DNA of 9,876 nucleotides from the IMG/VR virus record IMGVR_UViG_2724679236_000015. One strand, written 5' to 3'. The DNA is from a virus (Duplodnaviria > Heunggongvirae > Uroviricota > Caudoviricetes). Each line of letters starts with the position of its first letter. The first letter of the stretch is position 1. The notes beneath the pieces are model-generated. The model saw only the letters and a list, made by a program, of their open reading frames with translations, was not told the DNA's origin and did not search any database. This document shows, in pieces, positions 1-9,876 of the stretch. A program made the translations under genes and the position numbers.

Positions 1-258
1 AAAATTGCAATATGTGGTGGACCCATACATCTCCTTGCCTTTCGGCACGTAAGAGGCTAACCTAGATTTGCCGTTCATAGATTGAGCCTCAGATTAATGT
101 TAAGCGTCTTGCAGGACGCGTAATGTTAACTGGGGCTTTTCTCTATCTGCCTTTTGGTATTCATGCCTGAGACAGATAGCCTCAAGCACCCGCAGCAATT
201 CTACTTAACTCCCGTAACCTCGCCAATATGAAATCAATCAGAAAGGTGATCCATAAAA

Positions 259-648
259 TCACTGCTTCTCTTCTTTACCGTAGTGGAGTTGACCAATTTT
301 GATAAGAGGGCGTCCCTGAGATTTGCGGTGTAGATTGGTATCGCGCAGAGAATGCACACAGCCACAATATTCCTGCTGATAGAATTGTTCGCGTTTGCTG
401 ATTTCAATCATGCGGGACAAGCCCCCCCCCTGCTTGCGCCAGTTATAATCCCAGTACACAATTCCCGGATAATGTGCGACAGCTCGCCGTCCGCAGTCGT
501 TAACCTGCTGCATATTTTTCCAGCGTGAAATGCCCAGTGAACTGCTGATCACACTGAAACCATTTTCAGCGGCGTACAGCGCTGTCCGCTCAAAACGCAT
601 GTCAAAACACATAGTACAACGCCTCCCACGTTCGGTCTCCCATTCCAT
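259..648 (-). CDS. QueH/DUF208-family (epoxyqueuosine reductase-like) protein, C-terminal portion; gene appears frame-split, with the N-terminal part at 702-845
   Basis: Translation contains [14 protein letters not shown]...[14 protein letters not shown]...YCGC, which I recognise as the C-terminal signature of DUF208/QueH. The frame stays open upstream to a stop at 751-753 with no alternative start codon, so the ATG at 648 is either an internal restart or the gene is disrupted. Confidence 0.55.
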
Positions 649-701
649 TCCTTTGGCTCGCTCAAACCAGTTGTCAGTGTCGTAATCAGCATCGATAAAC
701 G

Positions 702-845
702 CTACACCGTGTTGTTCTCGATTCCTGAGGCCTGAAGAGTCTCCATCACTTCACCGGAACATGGTGCACAACAAGAGTGTAATAGTAGTTTGTTTGCCCC
801 GTTTGGGAGCTCCAACTTAGGACGTTTGAAATCAGCAACTGTCAT
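702..845 (-). pseudogene. N-terminal fragment of the QueH/DUF208-like gene, in a different frame from the C-terminal ORF
   Basis: Minus-strand ORF ATG(845) to TAG(704-702) translates to [58 protein letters not shown] is the N-terminal Fe-S cysteine motif of QueH. Its frame differs from the 259-648 ORF; the two overlap at about 702-750. Confidence 0.5.
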
Positions 846-1116
846 AAATGTTTACGTCGGGGTAATGAAACTTGCAAGGAGTGTAGCATCAGAGTGTACT
901 GCCCCCAAAAGTTGGCAGTTAAACAAGAGGCTAGATATTTTGAGCAAAATTTCAAGATCAACTAATGCTCCTTTTTTGAACAAGCGTCCTGATTATACCA
1001 ATCAGATCGCATTACAATGCTATCTTTACTGATAAGTCAGTTGATTGTTTCGTTAAAATGCTTCTTAATACCGTAAACTTATTACTCCAGCACAGATAAC
1101 ATATAATGAAATAGCC

Positions 1117-1389
1117 ATGAAAATAGACATTAAAAATAAAAATGGGAATACACAACACCTAGACGTGTCATCGTTGATTATTACACTTAATAATGGAGAA
1201 ACTATTGAAATCACAGATGAAAACAAAAGTCGCCCAATTGATATACCTGAGGGGGTTACAGTGTGGGGAGGCCAAGCTCCCGATCAAGGAGCAAGCATAG
1301 ATCAACTAAAAAAGACAACTCGTGGCATAGGAATATATCCACTAGCCTCCAATATGGTGCACATATTCCCTTATTCTTTAAAAAAGTAA
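1117..1389 (+). CDS. Hypothetical 90-aa protein (moron-like, AT-rich, opposite strand to the surrounding operon)
   Basis: ORF sits in a visibly AT-rich island (about 1040-1520) with rare codons (ATA, CTA). A TATAAT hexamer at 1102-1107 lies 9 nt upstream of the ATG. No clear Shine-Dalgarno. No family recognised. Confidence 0.4.
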   Translation: MKIDIKNKNGNTQHLDVSSLIITLNNGETIEITDENKSRPIDIPEGVTVWGGQAPDQGASIDQLKKTTRGIGIYPLASNMVHIFPYSLKK

Positions 1390-1526
1390 AATCTTATGTA
1401 GCGTTTTAGTAGATACCAAATAAAGAGTGGAACTAAAATTTGATTTTAGCGCAGTGCCAGATGAGGCGATGGCTCTGCGCCGTAGATACACCAACTTAAA
1501 CTTGAGCTATTACATTTTGATTTTGC

Positions 1527-1949
1527 TTACCGAACAAATTTCTGGATATTTCCTCGATAAAACATCAGTACACGCTTCATCACTTCGCTCTTACGGCACT
1601 CGCTACAGATTATGTTTAGACGACTGTCGTAGCGACGTATTTCTCCGTCAGGAAATGACCAGATAAGGTCCGGATCAACCACAGCAGGTTTCTTCACCTT
1701 TGCCCTCGAGAGTTTTTTGCGGGCGTTTTGCCAGTCCTTACGCGCCTGTTCAGACGGGAATAACCCGTAGCCGGAGTTGTATACATCGCCACTGGCAACC
1801 AGCTCTCTGGCGAGAACACTCATCAGATATCTTGTCGCACCTGTTTTAGCTTCCAGTTGCCGTAACGTCTCTCGACCGCTCTGGCGCACGAGTTCCACCA
1901 CCTGCCCTTTAATTTTTTCTCGCTCTTCTTGTGTAAATACTTTTGCCAC
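1527..1949 (-). CDS. Hypothetical 140-aa protein with an HTH-like segment; occupies the position of a helicase loader downstream of the O-like gene
   Basis: GTG start at 1949 preceded by a perfect AGGAGG (rc of 1954-1959). The segment TLRQLEAKTGATRYLMSVLARELVASG looks helix-turn-helix-like. A 37-nt gap separates it from the upstream O-like gene. Confidence 0.65.
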   Translation of the reverse strand: MAKVFTQEEREKIKGQVVELVRQSGRETLRQLEAKTGATRYLMSVLARELVASGDVYNSGYGLFPSEQARKDWQNARKKLSRAKVKKPAVVDPDLIWSFPDGEIRRYDSRLNIICSECRKSEVMKRVLMFYRGNIQKFVR

Positions 1950-1989
1950 AAGCCCTCCTGAAAATTACCTCATGACCCGAAATAAACAC

Positions 1990-2955
1990 TTACCCCCTGA
2001 ACCCTGGGGGAATTTCGGTATCCGGTTCAGAAATATGATTCACACAACGCTGTACAGGTGAACGCCCCAGGCGGATGACCAGTTCGTCCCATTTTTCGCG
2101 GAGCTTTGACGGGCTCATGATGTTTTTTACCCAGAATGGATCCCGCTGTACCCGCCCAAACATTTCGCAAATTTGTCTGTGAGTTCTGCCATCCAGCATC
2201 CGCATTGTGCGCACATCATTGGCCCATGCGGTCCAGTTTGGTTCTTTCGGTCGCGTGATCTCGCCATCATCGCTGGCAGCCTGCTCGTAAAGACTCACGA
2301 TTCGTCCCCAGATCCACTGTGCGCACGCCAAATCTTCCTGACTTCCCCACTGGCGTTTTTTCGCACTGAACACAACCGCATCAGGGTGCCGAGTTAAAAA
2401 ATCCTGTTCAGCCGTCTGCAGGTCCGGTTGCGAAGCTTCCGGACGAGAAGTGTTTTTATTCTCTGTAGTAATCTCTGTTGTATTCTCTGTAAGATCATCA
2501 GACCATTTTGACCCGATGACATTGGGTCGTTTTGAACCAATGGAGCGTGCCATTTTGACCTCTTCCATCGTGTCATTTTGACCTGATGGAGCGACGCATT
2601 TTGACCTGATGGATTCGCTCACTTTGCCACCATCTAAAAGCTCACTCTCGTAATTAATCGTGTAAAAATTAGTCATATCACGCTTTGATTTGTTGAGCTT
2701 TTCGCAACGCAAAAGCCCCAGCGTTTTCAGACTTGCAAATGCACGTTTTAACGTTGATTCAGACCAGAACGGAAACTGTTCCAGCCATTGTTCCGTTGTG
2801 TTATAAATCCAGCGAACCCCGTCACATTCCATACCGGAATTGGTATCTCTCAACCAGTAATGCAGCTGCTGTAACACAATGGCTTCGTTCAGACCTATTT
2901 TCATCGCCAGCTGAGTGTTAATAACCAGTGGGCGTTCAGCAAAAAGAAGACTCAT
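1990..2955 (-). CDS. Phage replication initiation protein (O-like replisome organiser)
   Basis: N-terminal region MSLLFAERPLVINTQLAMKIGLNEAIVLQQLHYWL...NFYTINYE matches what I recognise as the phage replisome-organiser N-terminal domain. Iterons are embedded in the middle of the coding sequence. The ORF track extends to a TTG at 3009 and an ATG at 2997; I prefer the ATG at 2955 (GGA-containing motif upstream, short overlap with the upstream gene), but the start is uncertain. Confidence 0.8.
   Translation of the reverse strand: MSLLFAERPLVINTQLAMKIGLNEAIVLQQLHYWLRDTNSGMECDGVRWIYNTTEQWLEQFPFWSESTLKRAFASLKTLGLLRCEKLNKSKRDMTNFYTINYESELLDGGKVSESIRSKCVAPSGQNDTMEEVKMARSIGSKRPNVIGSKWSDDLTENTTEITTENKNTSRPEASQPDLQTAEQDFLTRHPDAVVFSAKKRQWGSQEDLACAQWIWGRIVSLYEQAASDDGEITRPKEPNWTAWANDVRTMRMLDGRTHRQICEMFGRVQRDPFWVKNIMSPSKLREKWDELVIRLGRSPVQRCVNHISEPDTEIPPGFRG
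2449..2635. repeat. Putative origin of replication: six about-23-bp iterons (core CATTTTGACC) plus an adjacent AT-rich segment with three TCTCTGT repeats, inside the O-like gene
   Basis: Direct repeats start at 2504, 2528, 2551, 2574, 2597 and 2620 (the last degenerate), spaced 23-24 bp. The AT-rich stretch 2449-2500 carries TCTCTGT three times. This mirrors lambda ori lying within gene O. Confidence 0.6.
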
Positions 2956-3457
2956 AATTCCATCCGGCTTTTTGTTGATATTGCTGACAATACGCATGCT
3001 TGAAAGCAATAGCTTTTTCTATAAGCTCGTCAGTCTCACGCTCCACAACAGCGGGATCTGCCAAAAGCAGACCGGACTCCACCACATCGCCATATTCTTT
3101 GTTTAACCCGGCGATCATGTACGTAATGCTTTTTCCGTCAGTAATTTCACGATACAACCTGAAATCACTTATCCGGATAGCCTCCATAATTGCCGGAATC
3201 AGCGCCGTGAATTTTTCCCGCTTATCCCTGGTATCAATAGCTTTCCAGCGTTCGAATATCTTCACCCGGTTGACGCCCAGCGCCCGTTGCTCAACCGCGC
3301 CATCATCAAACGTGACGCGTTGAACATCGATGTTCGGGCGTTCTTTCAGAGCCCAGAATGCTTCCGTGATTAATATCGTCGCCTGCTCCTGTGTCATTCC
3401 TGGTCGGCATACCCAGGCATCCAGAGCCTCACAAACATGTTCAGGGGTGATTTTCAT
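2936..3457 (-). CDS. YdaT-like protein (CII functional analog family of Rac/CP-933P-type prophages)
   Basis: 173-aa ORF immediately downstream of the cro-like gene, with a 17-nt overlap, in the cII position of the lambdoid map. The family assignment is from my recollection of YdaT sequences, not a search. Confidence 0.55.
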   Translation of the reverse strand: MKITPEHVCEALDAWVCRPGMTQEQATILITEAFWALKERPNIDVQRVTFDDGAVEQRALGVNRVKIFERWKAIDTRDKREKFTALIPAIMEAIRISDFRLYREITDGKSITYMIAGLNKEYGDVVESGLLLADPAVVERETDELIEKAIAFKHAYCQQYQQKAGWNYESSFC

Positions 3458-3671
3458 TGTTCAACCGCCCCGCCCGCTTTGCCTTACGATATTCGTCATA
3501 AACTTTGGGGTCGTACTGAAGTTCCCCGCCGGATGCATCTTGCAGGCGCATCGCGCGACCTTCAGGTACTAGCTCCCCTTTCCAGCTATAAAGCGAAGCC
3601 AAACGAATACCAGCAGCTTGTGCAAGTTTTGTTTTTGAACCGAAATACAAAAGTGCGTCAGTTTTAAGCAT
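3441..3671 (-). CDS. dicC: Cro-like transcriptional regulator DicC
   Basis: 76-aa protein MLKTDALLYFGSKTKLAQAAGIRLASLYSW... closely matches my recollection of E. coli DicC. AAGGTG Shine-Dalgarno 6 nt upstream of the ATG. Divergent from the dicA-like gene. Confidence 0.75.
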   Translation of the reverse strand: MLKTDALLYFGSKTKLAQAAGIRLASLYSWKGELVPEGRAMRLQDASGGELQYDPKVYDEYRKAKRAGRLNNENHP

Positions 3672-3685
3672 TTAAAGCACCTTAA

Positions 3686-3752
3686 TTGTTAGTCATAACT
3701 AACAAAATAAATGTTAACAAAAACATAGTCAATAAGATTTAGCATTAGCTAA
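3686..3752. promoter_or_regulatory. Divergent dicC/dicA control region with operator palindromes
   Basis: Perfect 8-bp-arm palindrome TTGTTAGT-cata-ACTAACAA at 3686-3705, and TTAGC-atta-GCTAA at 3739-3752 ending 2 nt before the dicA ATG. AT-rich 83-bp intergenic region between divergent genes. Confidence 0.5.
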
Positions 3753-3754
3753 CT

Positions 3755-4162
3755 ATGGATACAAAAAATTTAACCATTGGCGAACGCATTAGATATCGCC
3801 GAAAAAACCTCAAATACACCCAAAGGTCTCTTGCTAAAGCCCTGAAAATTTCTCATGTATCGGTTTCACAATGGGAACGGGATGATAGCGAACCTACAGG
3901 AAAGAATCTTTTTGCCCTCAGCAAAGTACTGCAGTGCTCGCCAACATGGATTCTATTTGGCGATGAAGACAAGCAGCCATCACCACCTATTGAGGAGCCA
4001 GTTGCTCTATCCCCCAAAGAACATGAGCTCCTTGAGCTTTTTAATGCATTGCCTGAATCAGAACAGGATGCTCAGCTCACCGAGATGCGCGCCCGAGTAA
4101 AAAATTTCAACAAACTCTTTGAAGAGTTATTAAAAGCCCGTCAACGAACAAACAAAAGATAA
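3755..4162 (+). CDS. dicA: XRE-family HTH repressor DicA (CI-like immunity repressor)
   Basis: 135-aa protein MDTKNLTIGERIRYRRKNLKYTQRSLAKALKISHVSVSQWERDDSEPTGKNLFALSKVL... closely matches my recollection of E. coli DicA (same length, classic HTH). Confidence 0.85.
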   Translation: MDTKNLTIGERIRYRRKNLKYTQRSLAKALKISHVSVSQWERDDSEPTGKNLFALSKVLQCSPTWILFGDEDKQPSPPIEEPVALSPKEHELLELFNALPESEQDAQLTEMRARVKNFNKLFEELLKARQRTNKR

Positions 4163-4186
4163 CGCAATCAATGCGTTATCTTTTTG
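4155..4186 (+). terminator. Rho-independent terminator downstream of dicA
   Basis: AGATAACGCA-atcaa-TGCGTTATCT: a perfect 10-bp stem (4157-4166 / 4172-4181) followed by a T-run (4181-4185), overlapping the dicA stop codon. Confidence 0.6.
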
Positions 4187-4197
4187 GTCGCCCAAAA

Positions 4198-4251
4198 TGT
4201 TAGTCATGGCAAACAAAAACACTTGACCAAATTGTTAGCTATGGCTAATCT
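4198..4251 (+). promoter_or_regulatory. Putative dicB-operon promoter overlapped by DicA-type operators
   Basis: TTGACC (4223-4228), 17-bp spacer, TAATCT (4246-4251). The palindrome TTAGC-tatg-GCTAA (4235-4248) overlaps the spacer and -10. An imperfect related site lies at 4200-4213. Confidence 0.45.
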
Positions 4252-4328
4252 TGCTTGCATCAAGACACCGCACGGTGTTCTCAGCAAACAGTTCCGCTAC
4301 CCCGGCGTTAAGGGGAAATAAGGTCAAC

Positions 4329-4481
4329 ATGGATACTATCAATCTTGGCAACAACGAATCTCTGGTGTGCGGCGTGTTCCCAAACCAAGACGGTACGTTC
4401 ACCGCAATGACGTATACCAAAAGCAAAACGCTTAAAACCGAATCTGGCGCGCGTCGCTGGTTAGCCAGAAACACTGACTGA
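4329..4481 (+). CDS. ydfA: YdfA-like small protein (DUF1391-type, 50 aa)
   Basis: MDTINLGNNESLVCGVFPNQDGTFTAMTYTKSKTLKTESGARRWLARNTD; AAGG Shine-Dalgarno 5 nt upstream of the ATG at 4329. The ORF-track start at 4251 lacks an RBS. Resembles my recollection of Qin YdfA. Confidence 0.6.
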   Translation: MDTINLGNNESLVCGVFPNQDGTFTAMTYTKSKTLKTESGARRWLARNTD

Positions 4482-4492
4482 TGAGGCTGACG

Positions 4493-4858
4493 ATGGAATT
4501 TAAAGATTTACCGTCTGATGTACAGAAAACAGCAGCTCATACATTGCATTCTGTGCTGCGAGAAATCGGGAAAGATATTGCAAGCGAGCCAGCAAAAGAT
4601 CTGGCCCGGAAAATCAAGACCGCTTTCGTTGAGCTTTATAATGTTGGCACTGACTCTGAAACTGTCGAGACCAAGACCGTAAGTTCACCAATATTCTCAC
4701 TTGAGCCAGGCGTATTATCAGGTGAAATATGCACCGAGATTTCCAGCGAACTGCTTCCGGTAATACGAGAAGCAATTTGCCGTCGCGGTTTGGATGGAAG
4801 TTACGATCATGACGTCCTGCAAGTTCTCAGGACAATGGTGACTTCACTGGGGATTTGA
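4493..4858 (+). CDS. Hypothetical acidic 121-aa protein of the dicB operon
   Basis: GAGG Shine-Dalgarno (4483-4486) 6 nt upstream of the ATG at 4493. An alternative ATG at 4481 overlaps the ydfA stop (TGATG). No family recognised. Confidence 0.55.
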   Translation: MEFKDLPSDVQKTAAHTLHSVLREIGKDIASEPAKDLARKIKTAFVELYNVGTDSETVETKTVSSPIFSLEPGVLSGEICTEISSELLPVIREAICRRGLDGSYDHDVLQVLRTMVTSLGI

Positions 4859-5027
4859 TCCCTGCGTCCTCTAACCTTTTGATATAGCGGTCCTCCAAGA
4901 AGCGGTAAATTTTGTCGAAATCATCTTTCCCCTCTGGTTTATTCAGAGGATTACAGGACCCGTAAGTAACGGCATACATTTCAACCGTTTTATCAAAAAT
5001 ATAAGAGACAAATTCTTCTTTAGTCAT
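4827..5027 (-). CDS. Hypothetical 66-aa protein encoded antisense to the dicB operon
   Basis: Minus-strand ATG at 5027 preceded by AAGGAAA with 7-nt spacing. It is the only open frame across about 170 bp where the plus strand has none. Translation: MTKEEFVSYIFDKTVEMYAVTYGSCNPLNKPEGKDDFDKIYRFLEDRYIKRLEDAGIKSPVKSPLS. Its 3' end overlaps the 121-aa ORF convergently. Confidence 0.45.
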   Translation of the reverse strand: MTKEEFVSYIFDKTVEMYAVTYGSCNPLNKPEGKDDFDKIYRFLEDRYIKRLEDAGIKSPVKSPLS

Positions 5028-5302
5028 ATAGATTTCCTTCTTGGTTATTCGGGATAAGAAGGATACCACCTCGCCTGACGTGGTTAAAAGCAGGCACACA
5101 ACACGAAAGCGCACGGCGAAGTTCGTCTCACTGTACGGTGTCGTTAAATTTAATTCGACCGTGCGCTTCCGGTTGTGGCAACCCGCGAAATGGCGCGGCG
5201 GTAAGTATGGCGGGGTTATTCCTTCCCCGTTGAGGACACCGGGTTGTCAGGTTGACCATACGCTTAAGTGACAACCCCGCTGCAACGCCCTCTGTTATCA
5301 AT

Positions 5303-5358
5303 TTTCTGGTGACGTTTGGCGGCATCTGTTTGCCCATGAACTGATGTCCGCCCTTTTT
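5303..5358 (+). ncRNA. dicF: DicF-like small RNA (cell-division inhibitor sRNA of the dicB operon)
   Basis: TTTCTGGTGACGTTTGGCGG matches the DicF 5' region as I recall it, followed by a GGCGGCATC...GATGtCCGCC hairpin and T5 (5354-5358). Located upstream of dicB as in Qin. Confidence 0.7.
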
Positions 5359-5527
5359 AAAGTGAATTTTGTGATGCGGTGAATGCGGCTAAGCGCACGC
5401 GGAACAGTTAAAGCTAAAAACAGTGTTATGGGTGGATTCTCTGTATCCGGCGTTAATTGTTAACTGGTTAACGTCACCTGGAGGCACCAGGCACCGCATC
5501 ACAAAATTCATTGTTGAGGACGCGATA

Positions 5528-5716
5528 ATGGAAACGTTATTACCAAACGTTAATACGTCTGAAGGTTGTTTTGAAATTGGTGTCACTATCAGCAATCAGA
5601 TATTTACTGAAGATGCCATTAATAAAAGAAAACACGAACAGGAACTGCTAAATAAAATATGCATTGTTTCGATGCTGGCCCGTTTACGTCTGATGCAAAC
5701 AGGATGCAGGCAATGA
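5528..5716 (+). CDS. dicB: Cell-division inhibitor DicB
   Basis: 62-aa protein METLLPNVNTSEGCFEIGVTISNQIFTEDAINKRKHEQELLNKICIVSMLARLRLMQTGCRQ; GAGGA Shine-Dalgarno 8 nt upstream. The ORF-track start at 5423 is an unsupported upstream extension. Confidence 0.85.
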   Translation: METLLPNVNTSEGCFEIGVTISNQIFTEDAINKRKHEQELLNKICIVSMLARLRLMQTGCRQ

Positions 5717-5915
5717 ATACGGCATTTGTACTCGTTCTGACTGTTTTTTTGTTTCTGGTGAACCGATTGATCTTGTTATTGACATACATGACTCAATGGA
5801 AGAATGCATGACTGCCGCGGCAGAGCAAAAAATTCCCGGTAACTGTTATCCGGTCGATAAAGTTATTCATATGGACAATAACGAAATCCCGGCAGGACTT
5901 AAAACAGCACCGTAA
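5713..5915 (+). pseudogene. ydfD-like small membrane (lysis-type) gene, split across two frames at a T7 tract
   Basis: ATG at 5713 overlaps the dicB stop (ATGA). Frame 0 gives a hydrophobic MNTAFVLVLTVFLFLVNRLILLLTYMTQWKNA and stops at 5809-5811. The -1 frame entered at the T-run 5744-5750 reads VSGEPIDLVIDIHDSMEECMTAAAEQKIPGNCYPVDKVIHMDNNEIPAGLKTAP to the TAA at 5913-5915. Confidence 0.45.
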
Positions 5916-5995
5916 TTAATATCCGATTTCATTTTTATATGCCAGCAATGGCAGGGATTTGTTCACACTTAAATCTGTAATGAGGTTAAAACAAA

Positions 5996-8455
5996 ATGAG
6001 TAAAGTCTTTATTTGCGCCGCCATTCCGGACGAACAGGCAACAGCAGAAGGCGCTAAACCTGTGGCCACTGCCATTGAAGCAGGCGACGAACGCCGGGCA
6101 AGAGCCAAATTTAGCTGGTTATTTCTGGAACAATACCCGGAAGCTCAGGACTGTGCTTATAAATTTCTTGTCTGCGAGGATAAACCCGGCATGGCCCGCC
6201 CTGCTCTCGATTCCTGGGATTCCGAATATATGCAGGAAAACCGCTGGAATGAGGAGTCGGCTTCCTTTGTTCCGGTCGACCCTGAACCGGACGCAGAAAT
6301 TGTTAACTTTAATCAGTTATCTGACGACAAGCGGGCTGCTGTCCTTGTCAGGTTCGGTACACATGAAAACATCACCGTGGATATGGTCATCAATGCAAGC
6401 GGGCTTCTCGGCGATGACGAGATGACGACTTTTGATGGACACCTCGCTGAAGCAATTATCCGGACCAGAGAAATTAACGCCATGTATCCAGAGCGTCAGA
6501 TTGAGTACATCAACGATGCCAGACGTGATTTAAAACCAACAGCCAAATGGCCCGACGTTCAGGCGTATTTTCTCGAACGTAAAAAACGCATGGAAAAGGA
6601 GCGCAAAGAAGGTGGCGCATATAATTCCGTCGTCGATCTTGCCCGCGCCAGAGTCAACCGGCAAGGCACTGAAAACTCTGCAGGAAAAACTGGCTCCGTA
6701 ACTGCTGTCATTCGTCGCGAATACAGGCAGACATGGAAAACACTGGATGACGAACTGGCCTACGCTCTCTGGCCTGGTGATGTGGATGCCGGAAACATTG
6801 ACGGCAGCATCCATCGCTGGGCAAAAAATGAAGTTATCGACAACGACCGCGAAGACTGGAAGCGTATCTCGGCATCAATGCGCAAACAGCCTGATGCCCT
6901 TCGCTACGACCGCCAGACTATTTTTGGCCTTGTCCGTGAACGTCCGATCGACATTCACAAAGACCCTGTGGCACTGAACAAATACATTACTGAATACCTG
7001 ACGACAAAAGGCGTGTTTGAAGATGAAGAAACGGATCAGAGTCCTGCTGATGTTCTCCGGTCGTCAGCAACACAAACTGATGCAGTGGAAACAGAAGTAT
7101 CTGGCACCCAAAAAAATGAAAGCGCACTGGAAGCTGAACCATCTGTAGAGCGTGAAGGACCGTTCTACTTCCTCTTTACCGATAAGGACGGCGAAAAATA
7201 CGGTCGCGCAAACAAACTGTCTGGTCTGAATAAGGCGCTGGCTGCCGGGGCTACTGAAATCACCAAAGAAGAATACGTCGCCCGAAAAAATGGCACATAC
7301 ACAGGCTTACCGCAAAATACCAATGCCGCACAAAACTCTGAACAACCAGAGCCGGTAAAAGTTAACACGGTCGAAACAAATAAAAAAATGGAGACAGAAA
7401 ATCTGCCTGATGCCGACAAAGTGCTTACTGCATCACGTGGTGAATTTGTTGAAGGAATTAGCGACCCGAATGATCCGAAGTGGGTTGAGGGGATCCAGAC
7501 TCGCGATTCTGTGTACCAGAATCAGCAAGAAATGGAACAGAACGACCAGAAAGCGGAACAAAACAGCCCGGATGCGCAACAAAACGGGCCAGAAGTGCAA
7601 CAGTCAGAGCCAACAGCACAACAGGAGACTGAAAAAAGCTGCAATACTTGCGGCCGGACTGGCGGTGGAAAATGTCCGGACTGCGGGCCTGTTATGGGTA
7701 ACACAACATATCAGGAAACATTCGATGAAGAAAATCTGGCTGAAAAAGATTCGGAGAAAATGGAAAGCACTGCGCATTCTCGTAAGGAGAGCGCTGGTGA
7801 CGCTCAGCATGGCAATAGCAGTGATGAAACTGGCGAGACGGCAAATCCCCTAATTCCGGTGAACAGTCATCATAAATACATATCCACCAGCAACAGAATG
7901 TGGACTCATATGATGATCGACCTGGAAACCATGGGAAAAAATCCTGATGCTGCAGTTATCTCAATAGGTGCAATATTTTTCGATCCGCAAACCGGAGATA
8001 TTGGGCCAGAATTCAGTAAGACCATCGATCTGGATACTGCTGGCGGTGTCATTGACAGGGACACCATTAAGTGGTGGCTGAAGCAATCGCGCGAAGCGCA
8101 GTCTGCCATTCTGGCTGATGAAATCCCGTTAGATGATGCACTGTTGCAATTACGGGAATTTATCGACGAAAACTCTGGTGAGTTTTTTGTTCAGGTCTGG
8201 GGCAACGGAACCAGTTTCGACAACGTAATTTTACGCCGTTCATACGAACGACAGGGAATCCCCTGCCCGTGGCACTACTGCAATGATCGCGATGTTCGCA
8301 CGATCGTTGAACTGGGAGGAGCCATGGACTTCGATGCCAGAACGGCTATTCCATTCGAAGGCGAGCGCCACAATGCACTTGATGACGCCCGTTACCAGGC
8401 AAAATACGTTTCAGCTATCTGGCAAAAACTGCTCCCAAGTCAGGCTGATTTTTAA
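5996..8455 (+). CDS. Prophage exonuclease: RecE-N-terminal/YdfE-like region fused to a C-terminal DEDDh (DnaQ-like) 3'-5' exonuclease domain
   Basis: 819-aa ORF with GAGG Shine-Dalgarno 10 nt upstream. The C-terminal roughly 190 aa carry DEDDh motifs: IDLETMG (Exo I), VWGNGTSFDNVIL (Exo II), HNALDDARY (Exo III). The segment ASRGEFVEGISDPNDPKWVEGIQTRDSVYQNQ resembles the RecE N-terminal region as I recall it. A C-x2-C-x9-C-x2-C motif (CNTCGRTGGGKCPDC) sits in an acidic, Q-rich linker. Confidence 0.85.
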   Translation: MSKVFICAAIPDEQATAEGAKPVATAIEAGDERRARAKFSWLFLEQYPEAQDCAYKFLVCEDKPGMARPALDSWDSEYMQENRWNEESASFVPVDPEPDAEIVNFNQLSDDKRAAVLVRFGTHENITVDMVINASGLLGDDEMTTFDGHLAEAIIRTREINAMYPERQIEYINDARRDLKPTAKWPDVQAYFLERKKRMEKERKEGGAYNSVVDLARARVNRQGTENSAGKTGSVTAVIRREYRQTWKTLDDELAYALWPGDVDAGNIDGSIHRWAKNEVIDNDREDWKRISASMRKQPDALRYDRQTIFGLVRERPIDIHKDPVALNKYITEYLTTKGVFEDEETDQSPADVLRSSATQTDAVETEVSGTQKNESALEAEPSVEREGPFYFLFTDKDGEKYGRANKLSGLNKALAAGATEITKEEYVARKNGTYTGLPQNTNAAQNSEQPEPVKVNTVETNKKMETENLPDADKVLTASRGEFVEGISDPNDPKWVEGIQTRDSVYQNQQEMEQNDQKAEQNSPDAQQNGPEVQQSEPTAQQETEKSCNTCGRTGGGKCPDCGPVMGNTTYQETFDEENLAEKDSEKMESTAHSRKESAGDAQHGNSSDETGETANPLIPVNSHHKYISTSNRMWTHMMIDLETMGKNPDAAVISIGAIFFDPQTGDIGPEFSKTIDLDTAGGVIDRDTIKWWLKQSREAQSAILADEIPLDDALLQLREFIDENSGEFFVQVWGNGTSFDNVILRRSYERQGIPCPWHYCNDRDVRTIVELGGAMDFDARTAIPFEGERHNALDDARYQAKYVSAIWQKLLPSQADF

Positions 8456-8519
8456 TGTTCAACCCCGGTTGTCGTCCACCAGCTATAGTGGCGGCGACCA
8501 TGATTAGCGAACAACGCTC

Positions 8520-8768
8520 ATGGCAAGACTTATTCTGCTCACTGAGTGGGCAAAAGAGGAATTCAGTGAACCGGTCCCTACTCCGGGTACATTAAGTAAA
8601 TACGCTAAAGCCGGAATGATATTTCCCCTCCCCAAAAAAGTTGGAAGACACTGGCGAGTGGATCCACGGGCTCGTTTTGTCGGAATGGTAAGCAAGCCTG
8701 AGGTGATCGCCACAGATCACCCGGCTTTAAAGAGGATACTGGAAGATGGCTCGCCCTCGAAAATATAA
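8520..8768 (+). CDS. xis: Excisionase (lambda Xis-like)
   Basis: 82-aa protein immediately upstream of int, overlapping its start by 23 nt. LTEWAKEEF...IFPLPKKVGRHWRV resembles the lambda Xis / Rac YdaQ-type winged-helix excisionases. Confidence 0.7.
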   Translation: MARLILLTEWAKEEFSEPVPTPGTLSKYAKAGMIFPLPKKVGRHWRVDPRARFVGMVSKPEVIATDHPALKRILEDGSPSKI

Positions 8769-9876
8769 AACCGATGTTCCGGGGTTATCTCCGTATTTTG
8801 ACAAAAGAAATAACAAAGTTTACTGGCGGTACAGGCATCCCATCACAGGCAAAAATCACGGACTCGGCAGTATTGACCAGAAACTGGCGGAAACCATTGC
8901 AGCAGAAGCAAACAGCCGCCTTGCCAGACAACAAATGGAACAAATGTTCAGTCTGCAGGAAAAAATTATTAGTGATACCGGCGGTTCATCAACCGTTTCA
9001 ATTTTTCTGAATAGTTACAGAAAAATTCAACAGGAAAGATATGAAAACGGAGAGATCAAACTCAACACGCTAAAACAGAAAGCGGCCCCTCTCAGAGTGT
9101 TTGATGAACGTTTTGGAGCCAGGCAATTAGATGCCATAACCGTAAAAGATATTGTATCGGTGTTGGAAGAATACAAAGCAAGAGGACATAACAGAATGGG
9201 ACAAATTTTCAGGAAAGTACTGATCGATGTTTTCCGGGAAGCTCAACAAACAGGCGATGTCCCGCCAGGGTTTAATCCGGCAGAATCGGCAAAAAAACCA
9301 CAGGTACGGGTATCAAGGCAACGACTGACCTTTGATGAGTGGATGATGATTTATAACGCAGCGGAAAAAGAGGGTTACTTTTTACAGCGTGGCATGTTGC
9401 TTGCGCTGATGACAGGGCAGCGTCTTTCGGATATTAGCAAAATGCAGTTTTCGGATATCCGGGATGGCTATCTTCATGTTGAACAGCAAAAAACGGGAGC
9501 CCGAATTGCTATCCCTCTGGCTCTGCGTTGCGATAAATTAAATCTTACCCTGGATGATGTAGTGTCATCCTGTCGCGATTGCGTTCTTAGTCCGTGGTTA
9601 TTGCACCACCATCACGCGAAAGGGACAGCTAAGCGCGGCGGAATGGTTAAACCAGCAACGTTAACTGTTGCATTTAAAAAAGCCCGGGATTCTGTAGATT
9701 ACAACTGGTGTGCCAATGGTACCCCACCCTCTTTCCATGAGCAGAGATCTTTATCAGAACGATTGTTCAGAGAACAGGGAATTGACACCAAAACTTTGCT
9801 GGGCCATTCGAATCAAAAAATGACCGATATTTACAACGACGCACGCGGTAAGGAGTGGAAAAAACTGGTCGTTTGA
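8746..9876 (+). CDS. int: Tyrosine site-specific integrase, lambda Int family
   Basis: 376 aa. Clear similarity to lambda Int as I recall it, including TGQR, KTG, FHEQRSL and LLGH...Y catalytic-region motifs (lambda: TGQR, KTG, FHELRSL, LLGH) and a YWRYRHPITGK N-terminal arm-type region. AGAGGA Shine-Dalgarno upstream. The stop codon is the last 3 nt of the window. Confidence 0.9.
   Translation: MARPRKYKTDVPGLSPYFDKRNNKVYWRYRHPITGKNHGLGSIDQKLAETIAAEANSRLARQQMEQMFSLQEKIISDTGGSSTVSIFLNSYRKIQQERYENGEIKLNTLKQKAAPLRVFDERFGARQLDAITVKDIVSVLEEYKARGHNRMGQIFRKVLIDVFREAQQTGDVPPGFNPAESAKKPQVRVSRQRLTFDEWMMIYNAAEKEGYFLQRGMLLALMTGQRLSDISKMQFSDIRDGYLHVEQQKTGARIAIPLALRCDKLNLTLDDVVSSCRDCVLSPWLLHHHHAKGTAKRGGMVKPATLTVAFKKARDSVDYNWCANGTPPSFHEQRSLSERLFREQGIDTKTLLGHSNQKMTDIYNDARGKEWKKLVV

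Follow-up and report, generated by a model that had tools for sequence, protein, structure and literature searches.

We analysed a stretch of 9,876 nt (hereafter the window), which corresponds to positions 1-9876 of BBVS01000019.1 in the draft genome of Escherichia albertii CB9791 (BBVS01), assembled with Platanus from 1.76 million Illumina MiSeq reads (PMC4700944, supplement). The window is the early-left arm of a lambdoid prophage that adjoins ompW, with the gene order repressor region, DicF-like small RNA, dicB, a ydfD-like gene, a ydfE-like exonuclease gene, excisionase and integrase. The features at and around the ydfD-like gene are as follows.

5304 to 5353, plus strand: DicF-like small RNA, 5' of dicB, as in a dicBF operon context (Rfam RF00039, 43.5 bits, E 6e-8, just below the gathering score of 48)
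5528 to 5716, plus strand: dicB, 62 aa, intact (Pfam DicB, 132.5 bits; the identical protein is named DicB in relatives)
5701 to 5704, plus strand: AGGA, Shine-Dalgarno-like, within the 3' end of dicB and 8 nt before the ydfD ATG (read from the sequence)
5713 to 5716, plus strand: ATGA, in which the ydfD ATG (5713-5715) shares bases with the dicB TGA (5714-5716); PGAP uses the same start in relatives with eight Ts
5713 to 5751, plus strand: native N-terminal codons 1-13 of the ydfD-like gene, MNTAFVLVLTVFL, fitting the family N-terminus MNTAF.LVLTVFL
5744 to 5750, plus strand: homopolymer of seven Ts (T7), the frameshift site, one T shorter than the in-frame allele of eight Ts (T8)
5745 to 5751, plus strand: T TTT TTG, an in-phase slippery-type heptamer by codon phase, a formal match only
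5752 to 5811, plus strand: out-of-frame tail of frame 0, FLVNRLILLLTYMTQWKNA, ending at a TGA stop (5809-5811)
5751 to 5915, plus strand: 3' part of the ydfD-like gene in the -1 frame, VSGEP...AGLKTAP, 54 codons plus TAA (5913-5915), holding the conserved DUF1482 core EQKIPGNCYPVDKVI (Pfam DUF1482 on the fused translation)
5996 to 8455, plus strand: ydfE-like exonuclease gene, 819 aa, intact, downstream (Pfam Rv2179c-like, 221.7 bits; YdfE_N and YdfE_C)

The ydfD-like gene thus lies between dicB and the ydfE-like exonuclease gene, the position occupied by the YdfD family in annotated relatives, which show the same order, and both of these neighbours are intact beside the broken ydfD. A weak STnc100-like match at 5351-5560 (plus strand) extends into the start of dicB. 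Elsewhere in the window, the sok antitoxin RNA family (RF01794) is matched over its full length at positions 24-191 (minus strand; 107 bits, E 3e-24), which points to a putative hok/sok-type toxin-antitoxin module at the prophage edge; it is adjoined by a 117-aa open reading frame at 259-612 (minus strand) that matches Pfam QueH (epoxyqueuosine reductase), a family unexpected here.

Across the T run, the frame-0 codons are GTT (5743), TTT (5746) and TTG (5749), and the frame-0 product is a peptide of 32 aa, MNTAFVLVLTVFLFLVNRLILLLTYMTQWKNA, while the -1 frame begins with GTT at 5751. When the two parts were fused, the resulting 67-aa translation matched Pfam DUF1482 (PF07358) over positions 1-57 of the 57-position model, with 82.2 bits against a cutoff of 25 and an E value of 2.4e-23. 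An earlier note, made from the letters alone, had described the ATGA overlap of the dicB stop and the ydfD start, the seven-T tract, the frame-0 stop after 32 codons, the -1 frame of 54 codons leading to a product of about 67 aa and the in-phase X XXY YYZ heptamer, and all of these are present in the sequence at the positions given above. A single uninterrupted reading frame of about 63-67 codons is absent, and the window therefore holds a disrupted DUF1482/YdfD allele rather than an intact member of the family. Gene callers give just a 35-aa DUF1482 fragment (5808-5915) in the window. An in-frame ATG inside dicB, 18 codons 5' of the ydfD start (5659-5712, plus strand), yields DUF1482 calls of 81-85 aa (MHCF...) in many database entries; the longer call is probably a gene-caller artefact and not the true start. 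The sole Pfam match of the frame-0 peptide, to PspB, scored 17.9 bits against a cutoff of 25.6 and was taken as hydrophobic-composition noise. An Rfam scan gave no match over the T tract. Runs of seven Ts or As are not in excess in the window (four observed, 7.1 expected), and the other three sit inside open reading frames; the T7 run by itself is not unusual, and what is non-random is its place, exactly where a conserved gene changes frame.

The best matches to positions 5520-5960 among E. coli complete genomes are one base longer than the window. In E. coli PK8241 and Z1323CEC0009, the whole gene is identical to that of the window except for one extra T, this single-T gap being the sole difference, and in such T8 relatives PGAP annotates an intact 67-aa DUF1482 protein. 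In E. coli CAU16175, the one T7 copy for which the annotation was fetched, PGAP labels the gene as frameshifted. A comparison with the ydfD alleles of other prophages had been proposed in the earlier note, which had set beforehand a T8 run giving a simple in-frame gene as an outcome that would speak against programmed slippage, and this is the state that the near-identical relatives carry. The similarity to PK8241 extends over the dicB-ydfD block at 5348-6290, which is nearly identical (one SNP plus the T run) while both flanks are at about 88 % identity, and indicates a putative recent recombination block common to E. albertii and E. coli prophages, the window being a mosaic. At the Z1323CEC0009 locus (5009-5196), dicB is annotated as frameshifted while ydfD is intact with T8; the dicB frameshift may reflect either a further homopolymer indel or a fault of the assembly.

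To place the T7 allele among its relatives, tract lengths were collected at 38 loci, two of which are the window's own record. Fourteen loci carried T7, sixteen T8 and eight carried nine Ts (T9), proportions that are indicative only, as sampling was non-random and one look-up, with the 35-aa fragment, was conditioned on a disrupted gene; T6 or T10 was found at none of the 38. The exact DicB protein was found at ten places in complete genomes, with T7 in seven and T8 in three, two genomes holding one of each. A pattern scan for T6 to T10 returned 11 IMG/VR loci (three T7 and eight T8), and scans of metagenome and genome contigs gave one locus each, both T8, the latter being the E. albertii type-strain record. 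The allele class is present in 11 of 5,426 E. coli complete genomes (three T7, eight T8). The look-up of the 35-aa C-terminal fragment gave ten places, with T9 in eight and T7 in two, namely the record of the window itself and a contig from a chicken-gut metagenome, which carries the same T7 allele and flanking haplotype in a different prophage background (identity of 98.1 % to PK8241, 88.7 % to the window). The T9 frame-0 product is MNTAFVLVLTVFFCFW, and these alleles need a shift opposite to that of T7 for the frame to be restored. In the look-ups that were not conditioned on disruption, disrupted alleles made up 13 of 34 loci. The exact intact T8 proteins occur on 204, 123 and 89 contigs, counts that undercount disrupted alleles (nothing is called at six of the seven T7 loci in the complete-genome set) and were used just to show that intact T8 is common. 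In many E. albertii assemblies, PGAP lists 'partial' DUF1482 proteins, 49-50 aa long and starting exactly at (V)SGEP. One T9-bearing prophage (BLJL01000326.1, 684-3163) has its ydfE-like exonuclease gene split into open reading frames of 383 and 362 aa, a second broken gene of the operon.

The T8 run itself is rare in the family. We read the DNA at codons 10-16 in the best 80 IMG/VR matches, all of them intact, a set with no control for the disruption rate of alleles that lack the run. In 76 of these 80, codons 11-13 are GTT TTT CTT (GTTTTTCTT), with no long run, and the typical E. coli allele reads ACG GTT TTT CTT GTT TCC; the others comprised three with T8 and one with an interrupted run. 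In the latter, the codons are GTT TTG TTT (TVLF), corresponding to a T8 run broken by a T-to-G change, with the frame kept and the hotspot gone. In an alignment of 20 family proteins, L13 is conserved at 90 % or more, while the T8 clade has F13. These comparisons show T8 to be a derived state, reached by one C-to-T change (L13F), in a small, mainly E. albertii clade. The frameshifted alleles would in turn derive from T8, a direction that we infer from the family norm.

To follow the tract on its flanking sequence, haplotypes were defined over 390 nt with the tract masked (220 nt upstream and 170 nt downstream), which resolved ten haplotypes. More than one tract length was found on five of the ten: T7, T8 and T9 on haplotype 1, and both T7 and T8 on haplotypes 2, 3, 6 and 7, the other five having one length each. 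This spread implies at least six length changes, independent of one another. A single T7 origin spread by recombination was considered and rejected for at least haplotypes 6 and 7. Haplotype 6 is told apart by SNPs that stand 16 nt before the tract and 8 nt past it, and haplotype 7 has one 21 nt downstream; these are so near the tract that recombination is a poor alternative there. Between haplotypes 1 and 3, which differ only from +90 onward, recombination is possible. Two substitutions, each nonsynonymous when read in the YdfD frame, are confined to T7 alleles: G62D strikes an invariant residue, and I19T introduces a residue absent at that position among the 20 aligned members. At all 14 T7 loci, no stop interrupts the -1 frame before the normal one, with at most four substitutions per allele. 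At so few substitutions, an open frame is what would be expected by chance and carries no weight, and it likewise shows no decay.

From these comparisons of sequence, we consider it quite likely that the ydfD of the window is a genuine frameshift null allele, which would have arisen when a T8 run prone to mutation lost one T, T7 being the length as assembled. The pseudogene reading, one of three offered in the earlier note, is the one supported by the near-identical T8 relatives with their simple in-frame gene. The C-to-T change (L13F) joined codons 11-13 into eight Ts, and replication slippage at this run would then repeatedly yield T7 and T9; the polymorphism in length is directly seen, and slippage is its probable mechanism. 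Translation of T7 stays in the native frame up to codon 13 and stops at a length of 32 codons, giving a product that keeps 13 native residues and is without the conserved C-terminal two-thirds.

In E. coli K-12, YdfD of the Qin prophage (PF07358, 63 aa) acts in lysis and reportedly binds IspG, inhibiting it; its killing is lowered by deleting even one to five residues at either end, and its N-terminal domain alone fails in cells (PMC8835842). The gene studied here belongs to the same family and shares with K-12 YdfD the dicB-ydfD-ydfE-like position, the hydrophobic N-terminus and the conserved core, while a 1-nt deletion following codon 13 splits it. In its in-frame form, the allele also differs from K-12 YdfD, having F13 in place of L13 and a C-terminus that makes it 67 aa rather than 63 aa. 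Because both ends of K-12 YdfD are needed (PMC8835842), the T7 product would be expected to have lost the lysis and IspG-inhibiting activity. Full-length protein would be made from T7 only by unprogrammed, low-level background slippage, and the toxicity of YdfD to the lysogen may be the reason that the loss of ydfD is tolerated or favoured.

A different account of the same tract is that the frame change is programmed or exploited, with a -1 ribosome slip on U UUU UUG, or RNA polymerase adding a U, so that T7 supplies a membrane peptide of 32 aa together with full-length YdfD at a low but useful level. The phase of the heptamer is correct, the -1 product (MNTAFVLVLTVFLVSGEP...) regains the family-typical L13, the -1 frame is open at 14 of 14 T7 loci, and there are documented cases of homopolymers with low-level compensatory frameshifting, such as the G7 run of herpes simplex virus thymidine kinase (PMC5009743). 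However, homologues do not share the need for a shift: T8 is in frame, T9 would have to be corrected the other way, and the usual family sequence lacks any long run. Stimulators are also lacking on both sides of the tract: the 100 nt downstream (5751-5850) fold no better (-19.3 kcal/mol) than shuffled sequences do on average (-19.28 kcal/mol; z = -0.01), and there is no GGAG or AGGA in 5723-5743, the 20 nt before it. Efficient E. coli heptamers are of the type H_HH.U_UU.Y, heterogeneous ZZN codons shifting less well; U_UU.U_UU.G is not among them, being listed as efficient only for eukaryotic systems, and the U_UUG tetramer gave just 1.8-3.6 times background even with the IS3 pseudoknot (Sharma et al., PMC4066793). 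High-efficiency transcriptional slippage is reported for runs of nine As or Ts (PMC5009743), a length that the seven of the window fall short of and that the T9 sister alleles would reach. A slip at codon 13 would also occur with the nascent chain still in the ribosome and presumably with no membrane-insertion force, and the T7-only substitutions fall on conserved residues. The resemblance to the programmed -1 sites of bacteria (dnaX A AAA AAG and the IS3/IS911 family) is therefore confined to an in-phase X XXY YYZ and a longer -1 product, whereas the stimulatory Shine-Dalgarno element or downstream structure is missing here, the heptamer is of an inefficient type, and the requirement for a shift is absent in most homologues and reversed in T9. 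Programmed slippage, as raised in the earlier note, did not find support, and we regard programmed or exploited recoding as very improbable. A further likeness is to the 'savior indel' of the herpes simplex thymidine kinase G run, in which a homopolymer indel silences a gene that is harmful when fully expressed and trace read-through is mechanistically possible (PMC5009743), whereas for the ydfD T7 allele a trace product is a possibility only; a leaky, low-level rescue of the frame from T7 is possible. The remaining option of the earlier note was an error of sequencing or assembly, by which CB9791 would really carry T8 and an intact gene. The sole difference from the T8 relatives in the gene is one homopolymer base, a single assembly of CB9791 is on record, and the frameshifted dicB of the related complete genome could itself be an error of this kind. 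Against it, the CB9791 assembly rests on 1.76 million MiSeq reads and Platanus, indel errors of Illumina reads in runs of 7-8 nt are uncommon, the other three runs of seven in the window sit in open reading frames, and no fewer than 12 further independent records of varied origin share this T7 allele, among them complete genomes and a metagenome contig from Illumina data. A sequencing error thus appears an unlikely cause of T7, and an intact T8 gene in CB9791 would be a highly improbable state.

Related to the null-allele reading is that of a contingency locus, in which the T8 run reversibly flips the lysis gene between ON (T8) and OFF (T7, T9) and is kept because heterogeneity is useful; the slippage mechanism is common to both, and this one adds reversibility at a high rate and adaptive maintenance. 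A coding homopolymer that is polymorphic in length on otherwise identical sequences, as expected for such loci, was found in five of the ten haplotypes, with three tract lengths on haplotype 1 and T7/T8 pairs on four others; the tract lies early in the coding region, and disrupted alleles are frequent (the 13 of 34 loci from unconditioned look-ups). The likeness to homopolymer frameshift pseudogenes and contingency loci thus lies in coding-run lengths of 7, 8 and 9 on identical flanks, one of them in frame. In contrast to contingency loci that work by slipped-strand mispairing, the run is here short, at eight Ts, and arose recently as a derived feature within a small clade; eight Ts are few for classical phase variation in enterobacteria proficient in mismatch repair. 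The tract is moreover a rare derived state in the family rather than a conserved one, the run is interrupted in one allele (TVLF), and the T7-only haplotypes have gained damaging substitutions and spread between E. coli and E. albertii, which fits stable inactivation. We therefore hold a maintained contingency switch to be unlikely. The suggestion in the earlier note that the tract acts as a switch stands in the mutational sense, given the T7/T8/T9 polymorphism, and falls in the translational sense. A combination of these ideas, in which the T8 run created by L13F is a lysis-toxin switch whose OFF states are slightly leaky, by ribosomal slippage for T7 (U UUU UUG) or by RNA polymerase slippage for T9, such that the YdfD dose on dicBF derepression varies from cell to cell, would be less likely still.

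The frameshift null allele is a real but ordinary finding: it is a recurrent one, at a homopolymer hotspot within a prophage gene that is toxic. Its main bearing is on annotation: the appropriate label is a frameshifted ydfD/DUF1482 pseudogene allele and not a recoded gene, and an in-phase slippery heptamer beside a split open reading frame is insufficient to call programmed frameshifting. If switching between tract lengths proved fast and reversible, the locus would represent a contingency-type control of a prophage toxin in enterobacteria. As a modest point of biology, the results suggest that one synonymous-looking step, CTT to TTT, made an eight-T run, at which a toxic prophage gene of E. 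albertii and E. coli has since been broken again and again, in either direction.
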